From NCBI GenBank assembly GCA_029260905.1, contig JAJDCH010000008.1:1-54878 (forward strand): 54,878 bases of DNA, written 5' to 3'. Positions 12,705 through 35,773 of the stretch are shown here, one piece after another. The DNA is from Candidatus Levyibacteriota bacterium (GTDB lineage: Bacteria; Patescibacteriota; Microgenomatia; Levybacterales; UBA12049). Made by a program: the position numbers and the translations under genes. Within the stretch, counting starts at the first letter, position 1. Each line of letters begins with the position of its first letter. The notes beneath the pieces are model-generated. The model did not search any database, was not told the origin of the DNA, and saw only the letters and a program-made list of their open reading frames with translations.

Positions 12705-14231
12705 GCTAATTTTAAATCCTTTCTTAAAATCTTCAACGATCTTTTTTAGTTCGTTTATTGTTTGATCTTCAAGTTTTTCTCCTGTGTTAAGTTTGTCAAT
12801 TAGCTTTTTTGCATGAGCTTTTGCATATTCGTGAAGTTGTTTTTCAAATTCTCCTACTTTTTCAACTGGGACGTCATCAAGGTGCCCATTAGTTACAGAC
12901 CAAAGGCTTATTATTTCAAGTGCTTCAGAAAGAGGTGAGTATTGAGGTTGTTTGAGAATCTCAACAGATCTCTTACCTCGTTCGAGCTGTTTCATTGTTG
13001 ATTCATCGAGCTCTGATCCAAATTGAGCAAATGCAGCAAGGGAGTTGTATTGAGCCAGCTCGAGTCTAAGTTTGCCTGCAACAGACTTGATTGCTTTTGT
13101 TTGGGCTGCACCACCTACACGAGATACAGAATTACCTGGGTTTATTGCTGGTCTTACTCCAATATTGAAAAGGTCTGATTGAAGAAAAATTTGCCCATCA
13201 GTAATTGAGATTACATTAGTTGGGATATAAGCTGATATGTCACCAGCCTGAGTTTCAATAATTGGAAGTGCCGTTATTGATCCACCGCCTTTTTCCTTAT
13301 TAAGTCTAACTGCTCTTTCAAGAAGTCTTGAATGAAGATAGAAAACATCACCAGGATATGCCTCTCGGCCTGCAGGTCTTTTGAGAACAAGGGATAGTTG
13401 TCGGTATGCCCAGGCATGTTTGGTAAGATCATCGTAAACAATCAATACATCTTCTCCTTTTTCCATGAAATATTCACCAATTGCTGATGCTGCATATGGT
13501 GCTAGGTATTGAAGCGCTGCTGGTGCTGATGCGGGCGCTGCAACTACAATGGTGTAATCAAATGCGTTTTCTTCTTTAAGTCTATCAACAACTTGTGAGA
13601 TAGAGCTTTGCTTTTGACCAATTGCTGTATAGATGCAAATAACTTGTTTTTTGCCTTTCTTGTTTTGAAGCTGGCGTTGATTAATAATAGTATCAATTGC
13701 AACTGCAGTTTTCCCCAGTCCACGATCTCCAATGATAAGTTCTCTTTGTCCACGTCCAACTGGAATCATGGCATCAATTGCCTTAATTCCTGTTTTAAGT
13801 GGTGTATCGACAGGTGATCGGTCAATAACACCAGCTGCTATTTTTTCAAGTGGCATTAATTTGCCTTTTTTTATTTTTAGTTTTCCATCAAGCGGTGTTC
13901 CTATTGGATCAACTACACGTCCGAGAAGATCATCGTGTGCCTCAATGCTGAGAAGTTTTTCAGTTCTTTTAACTTTATCTCCTTCTCTGATATCATTGTC
14001 GCTGCTGAGGACAACGATTGAAACTGAGTCTTCATCAAGATTAAGTATTACTCCCTGAACCCCTTTTTGAAACTCAACAATTTCTCCCATCATTGCTTTT
14101 GAGAGGCCTGAAGCCCTTATGACACCGTCATGATTTTGTTCAACAATGCCTACGTGCTCAACTTTTACGCCAGATGTCGAGCTGCCGAGCTTTTGTTCTA
14201 ATTGTTTTATAATCTGATCTGAATTAATCAT
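12699..14231 (-). CDS. atpA: ATP synthase alpha subunit
   Basis: GRGQRELIIGDRGLGKT, GREAYPGDVFYLHSRLLER. Confidence 0.99.
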   Translation of the reverse strand: MINSDQIIKQLEQKLGSSTSGVKVEHVGIVEQNHDGVIRASGLSKAMMGEIVEFQKGVQGVILNLDEDSVSIVVLSSDNDIREGDKVKRTEKLLSIEAHDDLLGRVVDPIGTPLDGKLKIKKGKLMPLEKIAAGVIDRSPVDTPLKTGIKAIDAMIPVGRGQRELIIGDRGLGKTAVAIDTIINQRQLQNKKGKKQVICIYTAIGQKQSSISQVVDRLKEENAFDYTIVVAAPASAPAALQYLAPYAASAIGEYFMEKGEDVLIVYDDLTKHAWAYRQLSLVLKRPAGREAYPGDVFYLHSRLLERAVRLNKEKGGGSITALPIIETQAGDISAYIPTNVISITDGQIFLQSDLFNIGVRPAINPGNSVSRVGGAAQTKAIKSVAGKLRLELAQYNSLAAFAQFGSELDESTMKQLERGKRSVEILKQPQYSPLSEALEIISLWSVTNGHLDDVPVEKVGEFEKQLHEYAKAHAKKLIDKLNTGEKLEDQTINELKKIVEDFKKGFKISN

Positions 14232-14577
14232 TGTTTTGATCTATATTTTCAATAATATTTTCTAAAGTGTTTTTTAAATTCATTTCGAAAATATCATCAT
14301 TGATTTCTATTCTTGATCCAAGCATCATGCTGGAATCTTGATTTACAATAATATTTTTATCTTTAAAAATATATTTTAACTGTTTTTCTGTATTCTTATC
14401 TCCAAGTGCGGTGGTTAGATAAATGTTTTTCGCTTTTTCAGATGCCTTTATTATTCTTATGTATTGTTTAAGATCTTTTTTTGATAATCTGTCAGCTATT
14501 TTGAAAGCTGTTTTTTGATCCAGTTCTCCGTTTTTATAACTTGCTATAGCCAATTTTTTCAAAAATGTTTTATTCAT
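14224..14577 (-). CDS. atpH: ATP synthase delta subunit (short form)
   Basis: Lies between atpF and atpA; C-terminal DSSMMLGSRIEIND resembles the delta C-domain; only 117 aa. Confidence 0.75.
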   Translation of the reverse strand: MNKTFLKKLAIASYKNGELDQKTAFKIADRLSKKDLKQYIRIIKASEKAKNIYLTTALGDKNTEKQLKYIFKDKNIIVNQDSSMMLGSRIEINDDIFEMNLKNTLENIIENIDQNND

Positions 14578-29349: not shown

Positions 29350-31020
29350 ATGCCCCTTACAAAATCTAAAAGAACTAAATATATATTTGTTTCAGGCGGT
29401 GTCATATCTGGAATTGGCAAAGGCACAACCGCTGCCAGTATTGCTTATCTTCTTAAAACTGCAGGCTATAAAGTCGCTCCAATAAAGTTTGAAAATTATC
29501 TCAATATAGATGCAGGTACGATAAATCCTATTGAACATGGTGACCCTTTTCTTTGTGAAGATGGAACCGAGGGTGATATGGATATAGGAACATATGAAAA
29601 ATTTCTTGATGAAGATATGGGTCATGATAATTTCATCACAATGGGCAGGATTTATCAGACGGTTATTGATAAAGAGCGTAGATTTGAATATGGAGGAGAA
29701 GATGTTGAAGCAATACCACACATTACAGATGAAATTCAAAAAAGAATAAAAACGCTTGCTGATAAAACAGATGCAGACATAATTTTGATTGAGCTGGGTG
29801 GAACAGCTGGTGAGTACCAAAATGTATTTTATTATGAAGCATCTCGTATCATGACTCTAAGAAATCCAGGAGACGTGATCCATGTTCATGTCAGCTATGT
29901 TCCCACCCCTGCGCATCTTGGCGAACCAAAAACCAAGCCGACTCAACTTTCAGTACGAACACTTAACTCACTTGGAATTCAGCCTGATTTTATAATCGCA
30001 AGATCCAGAAAGTATCTTGATAAAAGGCGAAGAGACAGATTTGCGCTTTTCTGCAATATGCACCCAGAAGATATTATCTCAAATCCTGATCTAGAGTCAG
30101 TCTATGAAATCCCTCTTGTTCTTCAAAAACAGGAAATGGATAAAAGGATTTTTGAAAAGTTGGGATTAACACCCAAAAAAGCTGATCTAAGTAAATGGGA
30201 GGCTCTTGTGGGTAAGATAAAAGCGAAAAAGAGCAAAAAGATTGAGATAGCCATTATTGGAAAGTATTTTGGAACTGGTGATTATCAGCTTAAAGATTCA
30301 TATGCAGCGCTTTTTGATGCAATTAATCATGCAAGTTGGGAAATAGGAGTGGAAGTAACAACCAAATGGGTTGATGCTGAAAAAGTAGAGAAAGAAGGGG
30401 TTAAGATAATTGGCGCGCCAGACGGGCTTATCGTGCCAATTGGCTGGGGATCAAGAGGTTCAGAAGGTATGATAGCAGCTGCTACATATGCAAGAGAAAA
30501 CAATATTCCATATCTGGGACTTTGTTATGGAATGCAGCTTGCAGTTGTTGCTTTTGCCAGATCTGCTGCAGGAATTGAAGATGCATCAAGTGCTGAGAAT
30601 CATCCAGATAGCAAGCACCCAGTAATATATATAATCCCATCTCAAAAAGAGCTAATGAAAAGACGTGCATATGGGGGAACTATGAGGCTTGGAAGTTGGG
30701 AAGCAATTGTTGAGAAGGGAAGCAAAGCTCACGCGCTTTATGAAAAATATGGTGGATTTATAGACAAAGAAAAGGGACTTACTAGTGAGCGTCACAGACA
30801 TAGGTATGAATTTAACAATAAATATGCCAAAGATCTTGAGAAGGCAGGCCTGAATATAACTGCCAAATCAGTTGCAGAAGGGCTAGTTGAGATAATTGAG
30901 GTTCCAGATCACCCCTTTTACATGGGAACACAGGGTCATCCAGAATACAAAAGTAGGCCACTTAAGCCCCACCCAATATTTTTGGGATTTTTGGAAGCAA
31001 TGGCAGGAGAGAGAAAATAG
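29350..31020 (+). CDS. pyrG: CTP synthase
   Basis: GGVISGIGKG, KTKPTQ, LGLCYGMQ, ERHRHRYE, HPE. Promoter TTGATA-17-TAACAT 5 nt before ATG. Confidence 0.98.
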   Translation: MPLTKSKRTKYIFVSGGVISGIGKGTTAASIAYLLKTAGYKVAPIKFENYLNIDAGTINPIEHGDPFLCEDGTEGDMDIGTYEKFLDEDMGHDNFITMGRIYQTVIDKERRFEYGGEDVEAIPHITDEIQKRIKTLADKTDADIILIELGGTAGEYQNVFYYEASRIMTLRNPGDVIHVHVSYVPTPAHLGEPKTKPTQLSVRTLNSLGIQPDFIIARSRKYLDKRRRDRFALFCNMHPEDIISNPDLESVYEIPLVLQKQEMDKRIFEKLGLTPKKADLSKWEALVGKIKAKKSKKIEIAIIGKYFGTGDYQLKDSYAALFDAINHASWEIGVEVTTKWVDAEKVEKEGVKIIGAPDGLIVPIGWGSRGSEGMIAAATYARENNIPYLGLCYGMQLAVVAFARSAAGIEDASSAENHPDSKHPVIYIIPSQKELMKRRAYGGTMRLGSWEAIVEKGSKAHALYEKYGGFIDKEKGLTSERHRHRYEFNNKYAKDLEKAGLNITAKSVAEGLVEIIEVPDHPFYMGTQGHPEYKSRPLKPHPIFLGFLEAMAGERK

Positions 31021-31059
31021 TATTTAATATTAAGTATTAGATTTTTAATCCTTGAGTTC
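31018..31059. repeat. Degenerate 7-nt repeat in the pyrG-rplS spacer
   Basis: TAGTATT TAATATT AAGTATT AGATTTT TAATCCT TGAGTTC. Confidence 0.5.
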
Positions 31060-31080
31060 AGGTTTTTTTTCCGCTATAAT
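31052..31080 (+). promoter_or_regulatory. rplS promoter
   Basis: TTGAGT-17 nt-TATAAT, 8 nt before ATG. Confidence 0.7.
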
Positions 31081-31088
31081 ACATATCT

Positions 31089-31376
31089 ATGCAGCAAGTA
31101 ATTAATTTCGTGCCAGGAGACACCATAAAAGTTCATCAGAAGATTCAGGAAGGTGAGAAGACTCGTATTCAGGTTTTTAAAGGTATGGTCCTTGGTATTC
31201 GTGGACGAGGCGACAACAAAAGCTTTACTGTTCAAAAAATGGTTGGACAGATTGCAGTTGATAGAATCTGGCAGATCGATTCTCCAAATATTGAAAAGAT
31301 TGAAATTGCTGAAAAATCACGAAAAAGAATGAGAAGAGCCAAGCTTTCCCACCTCAAAATAACCCACAAGAATTAA
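31089..31376 (+). CDS. rplS: 50S ribosomal protein L19
   Basis: FVPGDTIKVH, EGEKTRIQVFKG, SFTV, RRAKL. Confidence 0.95.
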   Translation: MQQVINFVPGDTIKVHQKIQEGEKTRIQVFKGMVLGIRGRGDNKSFTVQKMVGQIAVDRIWQIDSPNIEKIEIAEKSRKRMRRAKLSHLKITHKN

Positions 31377-31419
31377 TTATAGTGCAGGACATAAAGGTAG
31401 TAAATAAGCCAGGGGTAGT

Positions 31420-32214
31420 TTAAGAAAGCGTTTTTACGAATTTATAGATAAAATATGCGCTTAGGAGCGAAATAGCAAAAGATATAATTGTTCCCCAAAG
31501 TAAACCAGTTGAAATATAAAAAAATCGTACTGTCAAAGAATAAACAAGCACATTTATTAATCCGCTAAGCATCAGTGATTTCATTACGCCCAGAGAAAAC
31601 TTTTCTCCTTGGAGCTTATATGTTATTGCCATTGTTGCAAAAAAAACTGCGGGAAATGAGGCAAATGCACCTCCTAGTAAAGGTCCACCAAACTCAGAAA
31701 ATAGTACAGATATCGCAATCGTAGAGCCACCAATTAATCCTCTAATTAGTATATCTTGATAAGAAAACTTATATTTTTTTCCAGAAACTGATGGTATTCT
31801 TAATAAGTATTCAAGAATTAAGTAAGACATGGGTAATATCACTAAAAAAGAAGCTATTGAGATATATAAATTGTTAAAATTAAAAAAGATCAAAATTGCT
31901 GAAGACACAAACCAAAACAATATTGATAAAGAGTATGCGATATAAAAATGATAGCGTAGAAAAAAACTATAAATAACAACCAATAATGCATTAATGCTTA
32001 ATATAATAGGAATTATAGAAACGCTTTCAGAAGCGTGAATTGTTCCTTGTGTCCAGCCAATAAAAAAGAGAGCAATAACAGTAGTAGAAGGTATTCCGGC
32101 AACCACTCCTCCAAGTTTGGACCCCAAGTTTTCTGCAAGTATTGTTGTCAATGTAATCCAGACAGAGCCTACAAGAAAAGATAAAAATAATTTTAATAAA
32201 AAAATATTGTCCAT
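31420..32214 (-). CDS. Polytopic membrane protein with internal duplication (DUF3147-like)
   Basis: About 8 TM segments; halves carry matching motifs AENLGSKLGGVVAGIPS and SEFGGPLLGGAFASFPA. Confidence 0.65.
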   Translation of the reverse strand: MDNIFLLKLFLSFLVGSVWITLTTILAENLGSKLGGVVAGIPSTTVIALFFIGWTQGTIHASESVSIIPIILSINALLVVIYSFFLRYHFYIAYSLSILFWFVSSAILIFFNFNNLYISIASFLVILPMSYLILEYLLRIPSVSGKKYKFSYQDILIRGLIGGSTIAISVLFSEFGGPLLGGAFASFPAVFFATMAITYKLQGEKFSLGVMKSLMLSGLINVLVYSLTVRFFYISTGLLWGTIISFAISLLSAYFIYKFVKTLS

Positions 32215-32229
32215 TGCTATAATGATAGC
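32215..32229. promoter_or_regulatory. Overlapping bidirectional -10 elements between divergent genes
   Basis: TATAAT (+, 32218-32223) 6 nt before the yraN ATG; TATCAT (-, 32222-32227) 7 nt before the opposite ATG. Confidence 0.65.
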
Positions 32230-32592
32230 ATGTCACGGTTTTTGAAAGATGAAGGGGATGAGGGGGAGGAGTTGGCAGCTGACTTTTTGCAGAAAAAAGG
32301 ATATAAGATAATTGAGCGCAATTTCAGGATCAGAGGTGGTGAGATTGATATTATTGCAATTTTTCAGGATACTTTGGTCTTTATTGAAGTCAAGACAAGA
32401 TCATCAAATAAATTTGGCACGCCTCTTGAGTCAATTACGCCCTGGAAGCTGAAGGCTCTAATACGTACAGCGCAGTTTTATAAAATAAAAAATAAAAATC
32501 TGCCAGATGGGATGAGAATTGATGCAGTAACTGTTGAGCATGACTTGTCAGGAGTTCCACAAATCGAACATATTGAAAATATTAGTTTTTGA
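32230..32592 (+). CDS. yraN: YraN family PD-(D/E)xK nuclease-like protein
   Basis: GEELAADFL, IIERNFR, GEIDIIA, FIEVKTR, RIDAV. Confidence 0.93.
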   Translation: MSRFLKDEGDEGEELAADFLQKKGYKIIERNFRIRGGEIDIIAIFQDTLVFIEVKTRSSNKFGTPLESITPWKLKALIRTAQFYKIKNKNLPDGMRIDAVTVEHDLSGVPQIEHIENISF

Positions 32593-32627
32593 TTTGTAAT
32601 TTTGGGGGTTGAATTTGATTGTTTTTT

Positions 32628-32636
32628 TGTTACAAT
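32628..32636 (+). promoter_or_regulatory. Extended -10 promoter for the pyk leader
   Basis: TGnTACAAT, 6 nt before the leader ATG; TTGAAT at 32609-32614 (16-nt spacer). Confidence 0.6.
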
Positions 32637-32642
32637 ACTTTT

Positions 32643-32693
32643 ATGGTAGTAAATAATAAAGCAGTAGCAGTAGTCGCAGTTCTACTCCCTTAG
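32643..32693 (+). CDS. Putative attenuator leader peptide MVVNNKAVAVVAVLLP
   Basis: 16-codon ORF with 6 Val, 3 Ala and 2 Leu codons, overlapping alternative RNA hairpins upstream of pyk. Confidence 0.72.
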   Translation: MVVNNKAVAVVAVLLP

Positions 32694-32721
32694 AGCGGAG
32701 GCGATTTTGCTGATAAATCAC

Positions 32722-32744
32722 CCCCGCCAGAAGCGGGGTTTTTT
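32722..32744 (+). terminator. Intrinsic terminator (attenuator) in the pyk 5' leader
   Basis: CCCCGC-CAGAA-GCGGGG followed by T6; the 5' arm can instead pair with 32695-32707. Confidence 0.85.
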
Positions 32745-32769
32745 AATGGTTTAGTTAATAAATATATTT

Positions 32770-33780
32770 ATGAATAATGTAAAAAAACAAATCAAGATAA
32801 TAGCAACAATTGGTCCTGCGACTCATTCTCCTGATCGTATACTTGATTTGGCAAAAGCTGGTGTAAATATATTTAGGATTAATTTGTCACATGCTACCGA
32901 TCAGGAGATTTCAGAACGTTTTAAATGGATAAAATTAGCAGAAGATATTTTGGGGGTAAAACTTGAGATACTTGGTGATTTGCCTGGACCTAAAATAAGA
33001 ATTAATGATGTTGCAAAAAATGTGATCCTTGAAAAAGGACAAAAATATTATATCTTGAAAAATAAGAAAAATGGTGATGTGTATGGATGTGGCCTTAACT
33101 ACCCAAAAATATTAGATGTGCTTACTGAGGGAGCAAAGATATTTATAGATGATGGACAGATTCAACTGATTGTAGACAAAAAAACATCAGAAGGTCTAGA
33201 GACAACCGTTGTAGTGGGTGGTCATTTGACTTCAAGGAAAGGTTTTTTGGCTGAAGGGATATCAATCAGTCTTGGCAGTGTTTCAACAAGAGACAAAAGG
33301 GGAATAAAGCAGATGATCAGAGAAAAACCAGATTATCTAGCAATCTCTTTTGTTGAAACGAAAAAAGACATAGAAGAAATAAAAAAACTGTTACCCAAAA
33401 ATTTCAATGCTAAATTGATTGCAAAGATCGAGACATGTAATGGCGTAGTTAACGCTGAAGATATTTTAAGTGTCTCAAGTGGATTGATGGTAGCAAGGGG
33501 AGATTTGGGACTTGCTATGCCTATTTTTAAAGTGCCTAGAATTCAGAAAGACTTGATAAGGCTTTGCAATCAAGAGAAAAAATTTGTAATAACTGCAACT
33601 CATATGCTTGAGTCAATGATTAATAAGCCTCTTCCCACAAGAGCAGAGGTTAGTGATGTAGCAAATGCTATTTGGGATGGAACTGATGCTGTGATGCTTT
33701 CTGGGGAGTCAGCTATTGGTAAATATCCGATTGAAGCAGTTACGGTTTTGCAGGAAATGATTGATGAGATTAGTTTTTAA
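32770..33780 (+). CDS. pyk: Pyruvate kinase lacking the C-terminal domain
   Basis: [51 protein letters not shown]; ends at 336 aa. Confidence 0.95.
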
Positions 33781-35773
33781 TCTTTTGAATTTTTCTTACT
33801 TCATCTCTTAGTCTGATCGCGGTTTCAAAATCAAGCTTTTCAGCTGCATTTTTCATTTCTTTTCTTAAGGCCTTAATTAGTTTTTCTTTCTCATCAGGAA
33901 GAATTACTTCCTTGTTGGAGAATTCAATCAGTTCAGCAATTGTTTCAGCTTCTTTTTCTTTTTCTTCCTCTTCAATTAATTTTGCTCGAATTGCTTTTTC
34001 AATTGTTTTTGGTGTTATATTGTTTTGCTTGTTGTATTTAAGCTGAATTTCTCTCCTTCTTTCAACTTCATCGATTGCGCCTTTCATTGATTTGGTTATT
34101 TTATCGGCATACATTATTACTTTTGAATCAACGTTTCGCGCTGCTCGTCCCATTGTCTGAATGAGGGATGTCTTGCTTCTTAAAAAGCCTTCTTTATCTG
34201 CATCAAGAATGGCAACAAGTGAGACTTCTGGCAAATCCAACCCCTCGCGCAGAAGATTGATTCCAACTAGCACATCAACCTCTCCTGATCTTAATGAATC
34301 AAGCACATCTTGTCTGCGTAGCGTCTCAATATCAGAGTGAAGATATGCTATTTTATAACCCCTCTCTTGAAGATAGCTTGATAGTTCTTCCGACATGCGT
34401 TTAGTAAGTGTTGTTACTAGTACGCGCTGTTTATTTTTTATTCTCTTATCTATTTCTGCTGTTAGGTCAGTAATTTGTCCTTTGGTGGTTCGAACTGTCA
34501 CAGCCGGATCCACAAGGCCAGTTGGTCTGATTAGCTGTTCAACGATACTGTTTTTTGATTCTTTTGCTAGTGATACTTCGTAATCATTTGGCGTTGCTGA
34601 AACAAAGATGGTTTTGTTTAATTTTCTGACAAATTCTTCATATTTTAAAGGCCTGTTATCAAGAGCTGATGGTAGTCTAAATCCATAATCAATAAGAGTT
34701 TGTTTTCTTGATCTATCACCGTTGTACATCCCTCTTATCTGGGGGATGGTGATGTGTGATTCGTCAATCATCAAAAGCCAATCTTTGCTTGCATGGTCAA
34801 GATAGTCAATCAAAGTATATGGTGGTTGTCCGGGTTTTCGTCCATCAAAATAAATTGAATAGTTTTCAATTCCATTGACATATCCTACTTCTTTTATCAT
34901 TTCAAGGTCAAAATTTACTTTTTGTGTAAGACGTTGTGCTTCAAGCGCGCGTCCCAGGGATTTTAATTTTTTAACCTGTTCATCCAGATCTTTTTGAATT
35001 TCAGTAAATGCTTTTGTATGAGTTTTTGGATCTGTCATATAGTGTTTGGCAGGATAGATAATGGTTGCATCAAGGATTTTGAGAATCTCCCCTGTAAGTG
35101 GGTTAAACTCATACATCTTTGTTAGCTTGTCCTGAATTTGAATTTTAATTCCATGATCAACGTAGGCAGGAAATATGTCTATATCTCCACCTCTTACTCG
35201 AAATGTCCCTCTTTTAAATTCATAATCGTTTCTTGTGTATTGCAAATCAGTAAGCTTGAAAAGAATATCTTCTTGTCTTATTTTCATGCCTGTTTTTAGC
35301 TCCATGACAAATTTCCCGTACTCAATAGGCGATCCAATATTATAAATACATGAAACTGATGCAATAACAATTACATCTTTACGAGTTAAGAGGTTGGCAG
35401 TTGCAGCAAGTCTGAGTTTGTCAATTTCTTCATTTATGTCAGCCTCCTTTTCAATGTAAGTATCAGATTGGGGCACATATGCTTCTGGTTGATAGTAATC
35501 ATAGTATGAAACAAAATATGAGACAGCATTATCTGGAAAAAAATCTCGAAATTCTTGATAAAGTTGTCCGGCCAGTGTTTTATTGTGAGAGATAATAAGT
35601 GTTGGTTTCTGTACGTTTTGGATCACATTTGCCATGGTAAATGTCTTACCACTTCCAGTTACCCCCAGAAGAACCTGGTTTTCTGTATTTTGCTTTAAGT
35701 TTTGAGTTAATTGTTTTATAGCCTGAGGCTGATCCCCAGTTGGCTTAAATTTGGACTTAAGTTTGAACTTCAT
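33770..35773 (-). CDS. uvrB: Excinuclease ABC subunit B
   Basis: [31 protein letters not shown]-terminal UVR motif. Confidence 0.99.

Follow-up and report, generated by a model that had tools for sequence, protein, structure and literature searches.

To our knowledge, nearly all known cases of leader-peptide attenuation concern operons for the synthesis, charging or import of the amino acid that is sensed, and the locus described here raises the question of whether a glycolytic gene can be governed in the same way. The locus is the 177-nt intergenic spacer between yraN and pyk, the pyruvate kinase gene, in a 54.9-kb stretch of DNA (the window, at its full length) from a Candidatus Levyibacteriota genome of 953,759 bases and 36.4% GC (G000 hereafter). 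A first-pass annotation of the window had read the spacer as a ribosome-mediated attenuator of the ilv, leu and thr layout placed before pyk. This reading gains strong computational support from three sister leaders in the same genome and from a profile of ilv leaders (R2, below) to which the spacer is the top match outside the training set, and positions 32609-32769 probably form an ilv-type ribosome-mediated transcription attenuator controlling pyruvate kinase.

Anatomy of the leader

The spacer contains the following parts:

32609-32614 and 32628-32636, forward strand: promoter-like site with a -35 element TTGAAT, a 16-nt spacer and an extended -10 TG-T-TACAAT (9/12 matches)
32643-32693, forward strand: leader open reading frame (ORF) of 16 codons plus TAG (32691-32693), MVVNNKAVAVVAVLLP, from the ORF reading
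32665-32712, forward strand: protector (1:2) hairpin, in both the minimum free energy (MFE) structure and the centroid of the fold of 32640-32760
32684-32739, forward strand: antiterminator with an inner helix (32695-32707/32715-32727) and an outer helix (32684-32691/32731-32739), from truncation and constraint folds
32722-32744, forward strand: intrinsic terminator CCCCGC-CAGAA-GCGGGG followed by T6 (hairpin 32722-32738, T6 32739-32744), from the MFE fold

The extended -10, a leaderless 16-codon ORF with nine Val/Ala/Leu codons in a row, and the three overlapping helices had all been pointed out in the first-pass annotation. The promoter scan confirmed the -10 element upstream of the ORF, the ATG (32643) lies 6 nt past it, and the helices were recovered in the folds at the places described. 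The leader ORF is predicted to be translated, probably in a leaderless or near-leaderless manner. It comprises six Val, four Ala and two Leu codons and no Ile codon, and a rough hand estimate from the 36.4% GC content puts the chance of nine Val/Ala/Leu codons in a row at about 1e-6 per start position. The protector joins the Ala/Val codon region to the G-rich segment 3' of the stop codon and includes GCAGUAGUCGC/GCGAUUUUGC together with CUC/GAG. The inner antiterminator helix begins 2 nt after the TAG, forms 11 of 13 pairs, and occupies, jointly with the outer helix, both arms of the terminator. All structural elements of the trp/ilv/leu attenuator class are therefore present in the spacer, namely the short ORF, the codon run, the terminator, the mutually exclusive antiterminator and the protector.

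The T6 run ends 25 nt ahead of the pyk ATG and lies 3' of the one good promoter-like site in the spacer, and the promoter scan of these 25 nt gave no passing site. Because the terminator stands between this promoter-like site and pyk, readthrough is the likely route to pyk expression. The Rfam search of 31000-34500 at E <= 10 gave no match to a leader family (Leu, Thr, His, Trp or Phe), nor to any other relevant family; a hit to anti-hemB at 14.7 bits only reflects the terminator. No tRNA or tmRNA was found in the spacer. A degenerate tRNA/tmRNA 3' end, considered on account of a ...CCCCCGCCA motif, was dropped, as ARAGORN and Rfam were both empty and the span would be 128 nt.

Alternative folds and proposed mechanism

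Folding had been suggested as a check on the annotation and bore it out: the MFE structure of 32640-32760 (-30.9 kcal/mol) consists of the protector hairpin and the terminator, and 5' truncations give the antiterminator. In the truncation series, the full leader folds into protector plus terminator (-29.6 kcal/mol). The antiterminator is the MFE structure with the 5' end at 32676-32682 (-22.4 kcal/mol), 32684 (-22.0) or 32686 (-18.4), the terminator state being at about -17.4, and the terminator is back with 5' ends at 32672 and 32674 and from 32688 onward. The inner antiterminator helix accounts for -13.7 kcal/mol, compared with -12.0 for the terminator alone. Constraint folds in which the 5' part was masked or removed agreed with the truncations in giving the antiterminator as the MFE structure. 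As a control, three non-leader terminators of G000, located at a gene end before a tRNA, after the 5S and after the 16S rRNA gene, kept their hairpins in 18/18 truncations.

The footprint of a ribosome reaches some 9-12 nt past the codon in its A site. Assuming this footprint, the permissive stalls would fall on codons 8-12, GTA GCA GTA GTC GCA (Val Ala Val Val Ala). The two Leu codons and the Pro codon fall in the outer helix, outside the permissive stall window, and a ribosome placed on them would favour the terminator. The proposal that stalling on uncharged Val, Ala or Leu tRNA induces pyk is accordingly narrowed. Its valine part agrees with the stall window; leucine sensing is doubtful, since the Leu codons lie outside the window in which a stall would free the antiterminator; and alanine is only perhaps a signal, since Ala codons also occur in the ilv leaders of relatives (four in that of G005) and alanine need not be sensed.

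From these folds, we infer the following scheme. Transcription would start about 7 nt past the extended -10, and the leader ORF would be read from a leaderless or near-leaderless AUG. In a leader free of ribosomes, the control codons would pair with the G-rich segment in the protector, the terminator would form, and transcription would stop before pyk. A ribosome reaching the Pro-stop end would cover the 5' strands of both the outer and the inner antiterminator helices, so that the terminator would form again. A ribosome stalled with its A site on about codons 8-12 would break the protector and leave the G-rich segment free; the antiterminator could then form, and transcription would read into pyk. 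The net effect would be to raise pyruvate kinase when valine, perhaps also alanine, is short, feeding pyruvate to acetolactate synthase, whose pathway would be opened simultaneously by the sister ilv attenuator of G000.

Sister leaders in the same genome

A search of the genome for ilv and leu genes, likewise suggested as a check, was positive. G000 carries the genes to make valine, leucine and isoleucine from pyruvate (ilvBNCDE, leuA-leuC and ilvA), and three further leaders precede them (codes beginning with G and L denote genomes and loci of the family set introduced below):

C6:76113-76236 (L067 about 14112-14256), reverse strand: ilv leader with ORF MYRTGLVIVVEVTP, antiterminator CGGGTGTT/AACACCCG and a terminator with T5, before ilvB-ilvN-ilvC-ilvD-ilvE
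C6:76296-76409 (L100 1318-1452), forward strand: leu leader with leaderless ORF MNSKNLLNLLLLTV (six Leu) and a terminator 37 nt before leuA, before leuA-leuC
C11:12227-12341 (L104 158-292), forward strand: ilvA leader with leaderless ORF MLIKKAQIIINIITP (six Ile), its terminator directly before ilvA-ridA

In each case the codon run suits the gene downstream, with Ile codons before ilvA, Leu codons before leuA and Val/Ile/Leu codons before ilvB. Each of the three leaders is also preceded by an extended -10 of the TGnTAnnAT type. The ilv operon was identified by NCBIfam matches to TIGR00118 (729 bits), TIGR00119, TIGR00465, NF002068 and NF005146. Its leader has the promoter TTGAAA, a 17-nt spacer and TG-C-TACTAT, and its G-rich arm, 2 nt past the stop codon, pairs with the 5' arm of the terminator; truncation gave the antiterminator over a 25-nt window of 5' ends and the terminator beyond. 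The leu leader is divergent from the ilv leader and lies 50 nt before leuA (NF002086, 714 bits). Its promoter consists of TTGACG, a 16-nt spacer and TG-A-TATACT with the ATG 7 nt past the -10, and its truncation folds pass through three states, as in the ilv leader. The Rfam scan of this leader gave at best 17 bits, to Phe_leader. Upstream of ilvA (NF006390, 604 bits), the promoter reads TTGACC, a 17-nt spacer and TG-A-TACGAT, with the ATG 6 nt past the -10. Truncation shifts the ilvA leader in the same direction as the ilv and leu leaders, from antiterminator towards terminator, but the untruncated RNA already folds into the antiterminator and has no protector, and two of the last three truncations yield only a shortened terminator or none. 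An outer antiterminator helix is common to the ilvA and pyk leaders; in it, the last sense codons (ACU CCU and CUC CCU, respectively) pair with the 3' arm of the terminator.

The pyk leader resembles its three sisters in the extended -10, the start codon 6-17 nt after it, the length of 14-16 codons, the G-rich arm 0-2 nt past the stop codon, the CCCGC-type terminator and the run of T5-T7. It differs from them in its Val/Ala(/Leu) codon run, where the sisters have Val/Ile/Leu, Leu or Ile, in the two antiterminator mismatches and the narrower stall window, and in a target that lies outside the pathway proper.

Resemblance to the ilv leaders of relatives

The family set comprised 194 genomes, 34 of which contain ilvB. 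Seven ilv leaders of relatives, from at least seven genera and six of them complete, were read by eye. In all of them, a promoter is followed, 6-12 nt past the -10, by the start codon of a Val/Ile/Leu-rich ORF of 14-15 codons, 1-4 of them Ala; a G-rich arm comes directly after the stop codon, and the terminator is of the CCCGC type. The pyk leader has no Ile codon, unlike all eight ilv leaders read, and the TGTTACAAT of the G017 ilv leader is identical to that of the pyk leader. In a seven-row MAFFT alignment of the pyk leader with six ilv leaders (A1), the pyk leader is colinear with the others through the -10, ORF, stop codon, G-rich arm, terminator and T-run, and the stop codon occupies one column in 6/7 rows. 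RNAalifold on A1 gave only four pairs, around the stop codon, the stems being out of register in the alignment.

Two sequence-only profiles were used. R1 was built from a training set that contains the pyk leader, and R2 was trained on seven ilv leaders (alignment A2), with the pyk leader excluded. The whole-genome search of G000 with R2 gave:

ilv leader of G000: 61.4 bits (a training sequence)
pyk leader: 35.7 bits, E 5.5e-9, model positions 2-128 of 132 (top non-training match)
leu leader: 31.2 bits
ilvA leader: 19.2 bits
dapL leader: 14.3 bits, E 0.027
purF terminator: 12.9 bits (a partial match)
C8 match: 11.1 bits, E 0.27 (partial)

As judged by a model built without it, the pyk leader is an ilv-type leader. 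R2 holds no base pairs and rewards common composition such as a promoter, a GC stem and a T-run, from which part of the score may stem, and the score is therefore no proof of common descent.

R1 was searched in 151 of the family genomes and had full-length matches in 109 of them, with up to nine per genome. Among its best 150 matches (115 weaker ones exist besides), whose positions were compared with those of ilvB and pyk, 14 from outside the training set stand upstream of ilvB at a distance of no more than 200 nt. The matched cassette of promoter, near-leaderless ORF, G-rich arm and terminator may represent a large undescribed set of attenuators. In one further genome (G003:C50; L023 1310-1560), the cassette has a Thr/Ser/Cys-rich leaderless ORF, MSKQFSICTCTTSSL, followed by a second short ORF, MKKRLEQNNTSTTCTLLWRL. 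Over 41 nt, the terminator of this cassette shares 82% identity with that of pyk, and the 326-aa protein encoded downstream had no NCBIfam match. In DNA searches, the pyk leader is a single copy in G000, and no homologue was found in the 194 family genomes, only short terminator-like matches, three of them directly upstream of ilvB.

Pyruvate kinase loci of relatives

The pyk gene is present in 73/194 family genomes, and 41 pyk loci of relatives were examined. Of these, 27/41 have a same-strand yraN match 5' of pyk, and the computed yraN-pyk gap is -4 to 146 nt in 24 of these 27. For the remaining three (L003, L039 and L052), the computed gap is 404-1121 nt, a value that is wrong for L003, where about 95 nt were read by eye. 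None of the 41 loci carries a Val/Ala/Leu-rich ORF with a stop codon and then a terminator, so the conserved upstream ORF with compensatory stem changes that the first-pass annotation had suggested looking for did not appear. As the yraN-pyk junction of relatives is tight and lacks the leader, the comparison indicates that the pyk leader, an insertion of about 120 nt, is specific to this lineage and entered a junction that was tight ancestrally.

In several genera, a promoter lies within the last yraN codons (TTGTAA/TTGTCA, a 17-nt spacer and TATACT), and a GC hairpin with a U-rich run comes immediately after it, ahead of the pyk ATG. Such 5' regions with a hairpin and no ORF were seen at L033, L047, L048, L050, L005, L046 and L003, and the hairpin CCCGGACTTGATCCGGG recurs in two genera. 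The hairpin of the relatives is a candidate 5' stabiliser or another kind of attenuator. In G118 (L036), the pyk 5' region has a 15-codon ORF, MCFIVFKLDVEAIST, without a terminator. A 31-codon ORF in G005 (L003) was not counted as a leader peptide, as it runs through the hairpin into pyk and its ATG is 2 nt past the -10.

The co-occurrence of ilvB and pyk was counted by hand: pyk is present in 21/33 of the other genomes with ilvB and in 51/160 of those without it, which gives only a weak hint because kin are not independent. A scan of genome contigs with Pyk found three distant loci in metagenome-assembled genomes, at 33-42% identity.

Strong terminators and other candidate leaders of G000

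Lenient terminator-like sites are about as numerous in the window as in shuffled sequence, with 10, 12 and 13 found and 11.6, 12.8 and 9.2 expected, and among these 35 sites the pyk terminator is the only hairpin of six GC pairs with T6. A strict pattern (six G/C, 3-8 nt, six G/C, 0-1 nt, TTTTT) occurs at four places in the 954 kb of G000, with two in a reversed-pattern control. The four are the pyk leader, the site before the acetolactate synthase gene (the ilvB leader, with T5), a site before purF and one judged intragenic by eye. A lax pattern (five G/C, 3-8 nt, five G/C, T6) occurs at 13 places, of which 11 were inspected. Five of the 13 are in 5' leaders (pyk, leuA, dapL, purF and the FMN riboswitch before ribE), two lie after rRNA genes (5S and 16S), one at a gene end before a tRNA and one upstream of 16S rRNA, and two were judged intragenic from frames read by eye. 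The Rfam scan of the lax-pattern places C4:56820 and C17:825 was empty. Neither pattern captures the ilvA leader, which profile R1 brought to light. The strong intrinsic terminators of G000 are thus mainly regulatory or rRNA-associated and are not general gene-end signals.

Besides the amino-acid leaders above, four elements of this kind were recorded:

C10:73175-73311 (L092 about 1380-1525), forward strand: candidate leader of dapL (LL-diaminopimelate aminotransferase) with ORF MKIIGSILVSKNNKRLI, an extended -10, a protector and a very strong terminator
C2:101075-101170 (L059 about 1500-1620), reverse strand: purF leader with a perfect TTGACA-17-TATAAT promoter, then about 90 nt of AT-rich leader and, after it, a strong terminator
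C6:43700-43880 (L084 1500-1675), reverse strand: FMN riboswitch (RF00050, 84.9 bits) and terminator, followed by a gene that resembles riboflavin synthase (by eye)
C8:68330-68418 (L091 about 1426-1522): perfect TTGACA-17-TATAAT promoter, then about 65 nt and a strong terminator, the unit lying about 270 nt before the start of 16S rRNA

The dapL leader formed the antiterminator at one truncation only and has an R2 E value of 0.027, and the purF leader matched no Rfam family; both are regarded as candidates. The promoter-terminator unit on C8 could encode a small RNA or be an element of the rRNA leader.

The pyk gene and its neighbours

The spacer is flanked by the following genes:

32230-32592, forward strand: yraN (UPF0102; PF02021, 101 bits)
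32770-33780, forward strand: pyk, pyruvate kinase of 336 aa (PF00224, 322 bits, profile positions 2-328 of 328)

According to the ORF map, pyk is the only gene downstream of the leader, and uvrB converges on its 3' end. By the Pfam match, the protein consists of the barrel domain alone; the C-terminal domain, the seat of allosteric control in other pyruvate kinases, is missing. The closest relatives of this Pyk are those of G119 (336 aa, 62% identity) and G118 (335 aa). Short barrel-only pyruvate kinases of 335-343 aa occur in G000, G119, G118, G006 and G010 (loci L033, L036, L009 and L015), and in most relatives the enzyme has 465-483 aa. No match to pyruvate-phosphate dikinase was found in the G000 genome, and pyk is therefore plausible as a main route from phosphoenolpyruvate to pyruvate.

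Weighing the explanations

Several findings weigh against the attenuator reading. In the RNA itself, the pyk antiterminator has two mismatches and wins across an 11-nt window, compared with about 25 nt in the ilv leader; the Leu codons are out of its reach; and the whole-leader fold is not unusual when compared with shuffles (z = -1.29), so that the case is not built on stability. The sensitivity of R2 to composition belongs here as well. In the comparative data, the leader is missing from all 41 pyk loci of relatives, R1 at E <= 1 gave nothing in six of them, and among the best 150 R1 matches only that of G000 itself adjoins pyk. G001, the sole other species of the genus (YraN 87% identical), has neither pyk nor ilvB, and its yraN stop abuts the uvrB stop (G001:C1:529251-531594; L029/L030). 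In sequencing runs, the locus of this uncultivated organism was found in four DNA runs of one study and in no RNA run; the contigs of these runs over 32200-33800 carry an identical leader with no variants, and a second, G001-like strain in the same runs lacks the leader. When metagenomes were scanned with Pyk, a single distant locus came up, with 42% identity. With regard to physiology, the regulated gene does not belong to the biosynthesis, charging or transport of a sensed amino acid but is pyk, so the regulatory logic proposed for it is inferential. No match to alanine dehydrogenase was found in the G000 genome, and any direct link from pyruvate to alanine is conjectural.

The best surviving alternative is that a relocated or duplicated ilv-type leader sits before pyk as a recent passenger, which still ends most transcription arriving from yraN or started at its own promoter and responds to valine without an adaptive link to pyk, or is decaying, as pyk itself was lost from the sister genome. 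The first-pass annotation had itself allowed for a relocated ilv-type leader, and relocation likewise gains strong computational support from the sister leaders and the R2 match. A cassette that is common in the family (R1 matches in 109/151 genomes) and stands before pyk in G000 alone (0/41 relatives), with a sister genome lacking pyk, leader and ilvB, would fit a recent arrival; however, no DNA homologue exists in the 194 family genomes, and the leader is thus not a fresh copy of any sampled one. Its codon run is also without Ile, unlike those of all eight ilv leaders read. Decay would fit an antiterminator weaker than those of ilv and leu, but all parts are intact and in register, from the promoter, start and ORF through the stop codon 2 nt before the G-rich arm to the helices and the T-run, and the pyk ORF is intact with a full match to the pyruvate kinase barrel profile. 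We consider a mere passenger unlikely.

A stand-alone unit, in which the spacer would encode a small RNA of about 100 nt or a hydrophobic peptide of 16 residues with its own terminator while pyk is expressed otherwise, appears quite improbable. The promoter, with about 100 nt after it and a strong terminator at the end, does make a complete unit, and a comparable one without an obvious ORF lies on C8 upstream of 16S rRNA. Yet only 25 nt, with no promoter passing the scan, are left between the terminator and pyk, and no Rfam family matched. The three ordinary terminators show no alternative pairing of the kind seen here, and the peptide resembles the variable ilv leader peptides in composition and not in sequence, as a regulatory ORF would. 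Terminated attenuator RNAs and leader peptides acting in trans are described for Sinorhizobium in the parts of two studies consulted (PMC7968998, PMC7298713) and provide a precedent for such a product.

A plain yraN terminator accompanied by a chance upstream hairpin and a chance ORF is highly improbable: although the hairpin lies 3' of yraN on the same strand and relatives often have a GC hairpin and U-run without an ORF between yraN and pyk (L033, L046, L003, L047, L048 and L050), intrinsic terminators are scarce at the gene ends of G000, 130 nt and a promoter-like site separate the hairpin from the yraN stop, the ilv-only profile R2 matches over its full length (E 5.5e-9), and the nine-codon run and the specific alternative pairing would both have to be coincidence. 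A GC hairpin serving in G000 merely as a 5' stabiliser or yraN terminator was rejected as the principal explanation in view of the sister leaders and the alternative pairing.

Implications

The attenuator reading sets a codon run of pyruvate-derived amino acids, without isoleucine, before the enzyme that makes pyruvate. In our judgement, the evidence is evenly balanced on a broader proposal: that pyk has been wired into a branched-chain and alanine regulon by sensing of tRNA charge, as a feed-forward control of precursor supply, through a modular leaderless cassette that the bacterial family moves before different genes and retunes in its codons (to Val/Ala for pyk), as the first such case on a glycolytic gene. 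One may further speculate that attenuation stands in for the allosteric control lost with the C-terminal domain. If attenuation of pyk is real, central carbon flux would be coupled directly to tRNA charging, relocation and a change of codons would suffice to recruit attenuator cassettes to new targets, and much of the metabolic regulation of a very small genome could run on RNA switches (protein regulators were not looked for). Four amino-acid-specific leaderless attenuators in a 0.95-Mb genome would also offer a compact natural comparison set.

Comparison with known systems

The closest known systems are the enterobacterial branched-chain attenuators, ilvBN with ivbL, ilvGMEDA with ilvL, and leuL. 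The pyk leader shares with branched-chain attenuators a short promoter-proximal ORF, a Val/Leu(/Ile) codon run, three overlapping helices, a stop codon just before the antiterminator strand, and termination as the default without translation or with full translation. It differs in its target, a pyruvate kinase that supplies a precursor through glycolysis, in the seemingly leaderless ORF, in having no Ile and four Ala codons, in its 0.95-Mb genome and in matching no Rfam leader family. A leader-peptide attenuator is also reported for ilvBNC of Corynebacterium glutamicum, in the portion of the source consulted (PMC11857589).

Leader ORFs may also respond to other signals, such as UTP in pyrBI and free tryptophan in tna. 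In Salmonella, the leader ORFs of mgtCBR and mgtA control non-biosynthetic genes, with proline among their signals, according to the excerpts consulted of PMC3641672. These leaders are like that of pyk in that the ribosome position on a leader ORF controls genes beyond the operon of the sensed amino acid, and they differ from it in signals and targets, the sequences being unrelated.

An earlier study placed the leader-peptide systems then known in Proteobacteria and Actinobacteria and added a His leader in bacilli; the passages of it that were available contain no pyruvate, pyk or glycolysis, and its supplementary candidate lists could hold glycolytic genes (PMC2965389). Within the literature searched, whose coverage ended short of supplements and subscription journals, no leader-peptide attenuator on pyruvate kinase or any other glycolytic gene was found, nor anything on attenuation in the small genomes of the Candidate Phyla Radiation/Patescibacteria. 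So far as this literature extends, the set in G000 would be the first of its kind described in a genome this small. The mechanism proposed for the pyk leader is that of the textbook; what is unexpected, compared with the known systems, is its target, its retuned codon run and its place among four such leaders in a sub-megabase genome.

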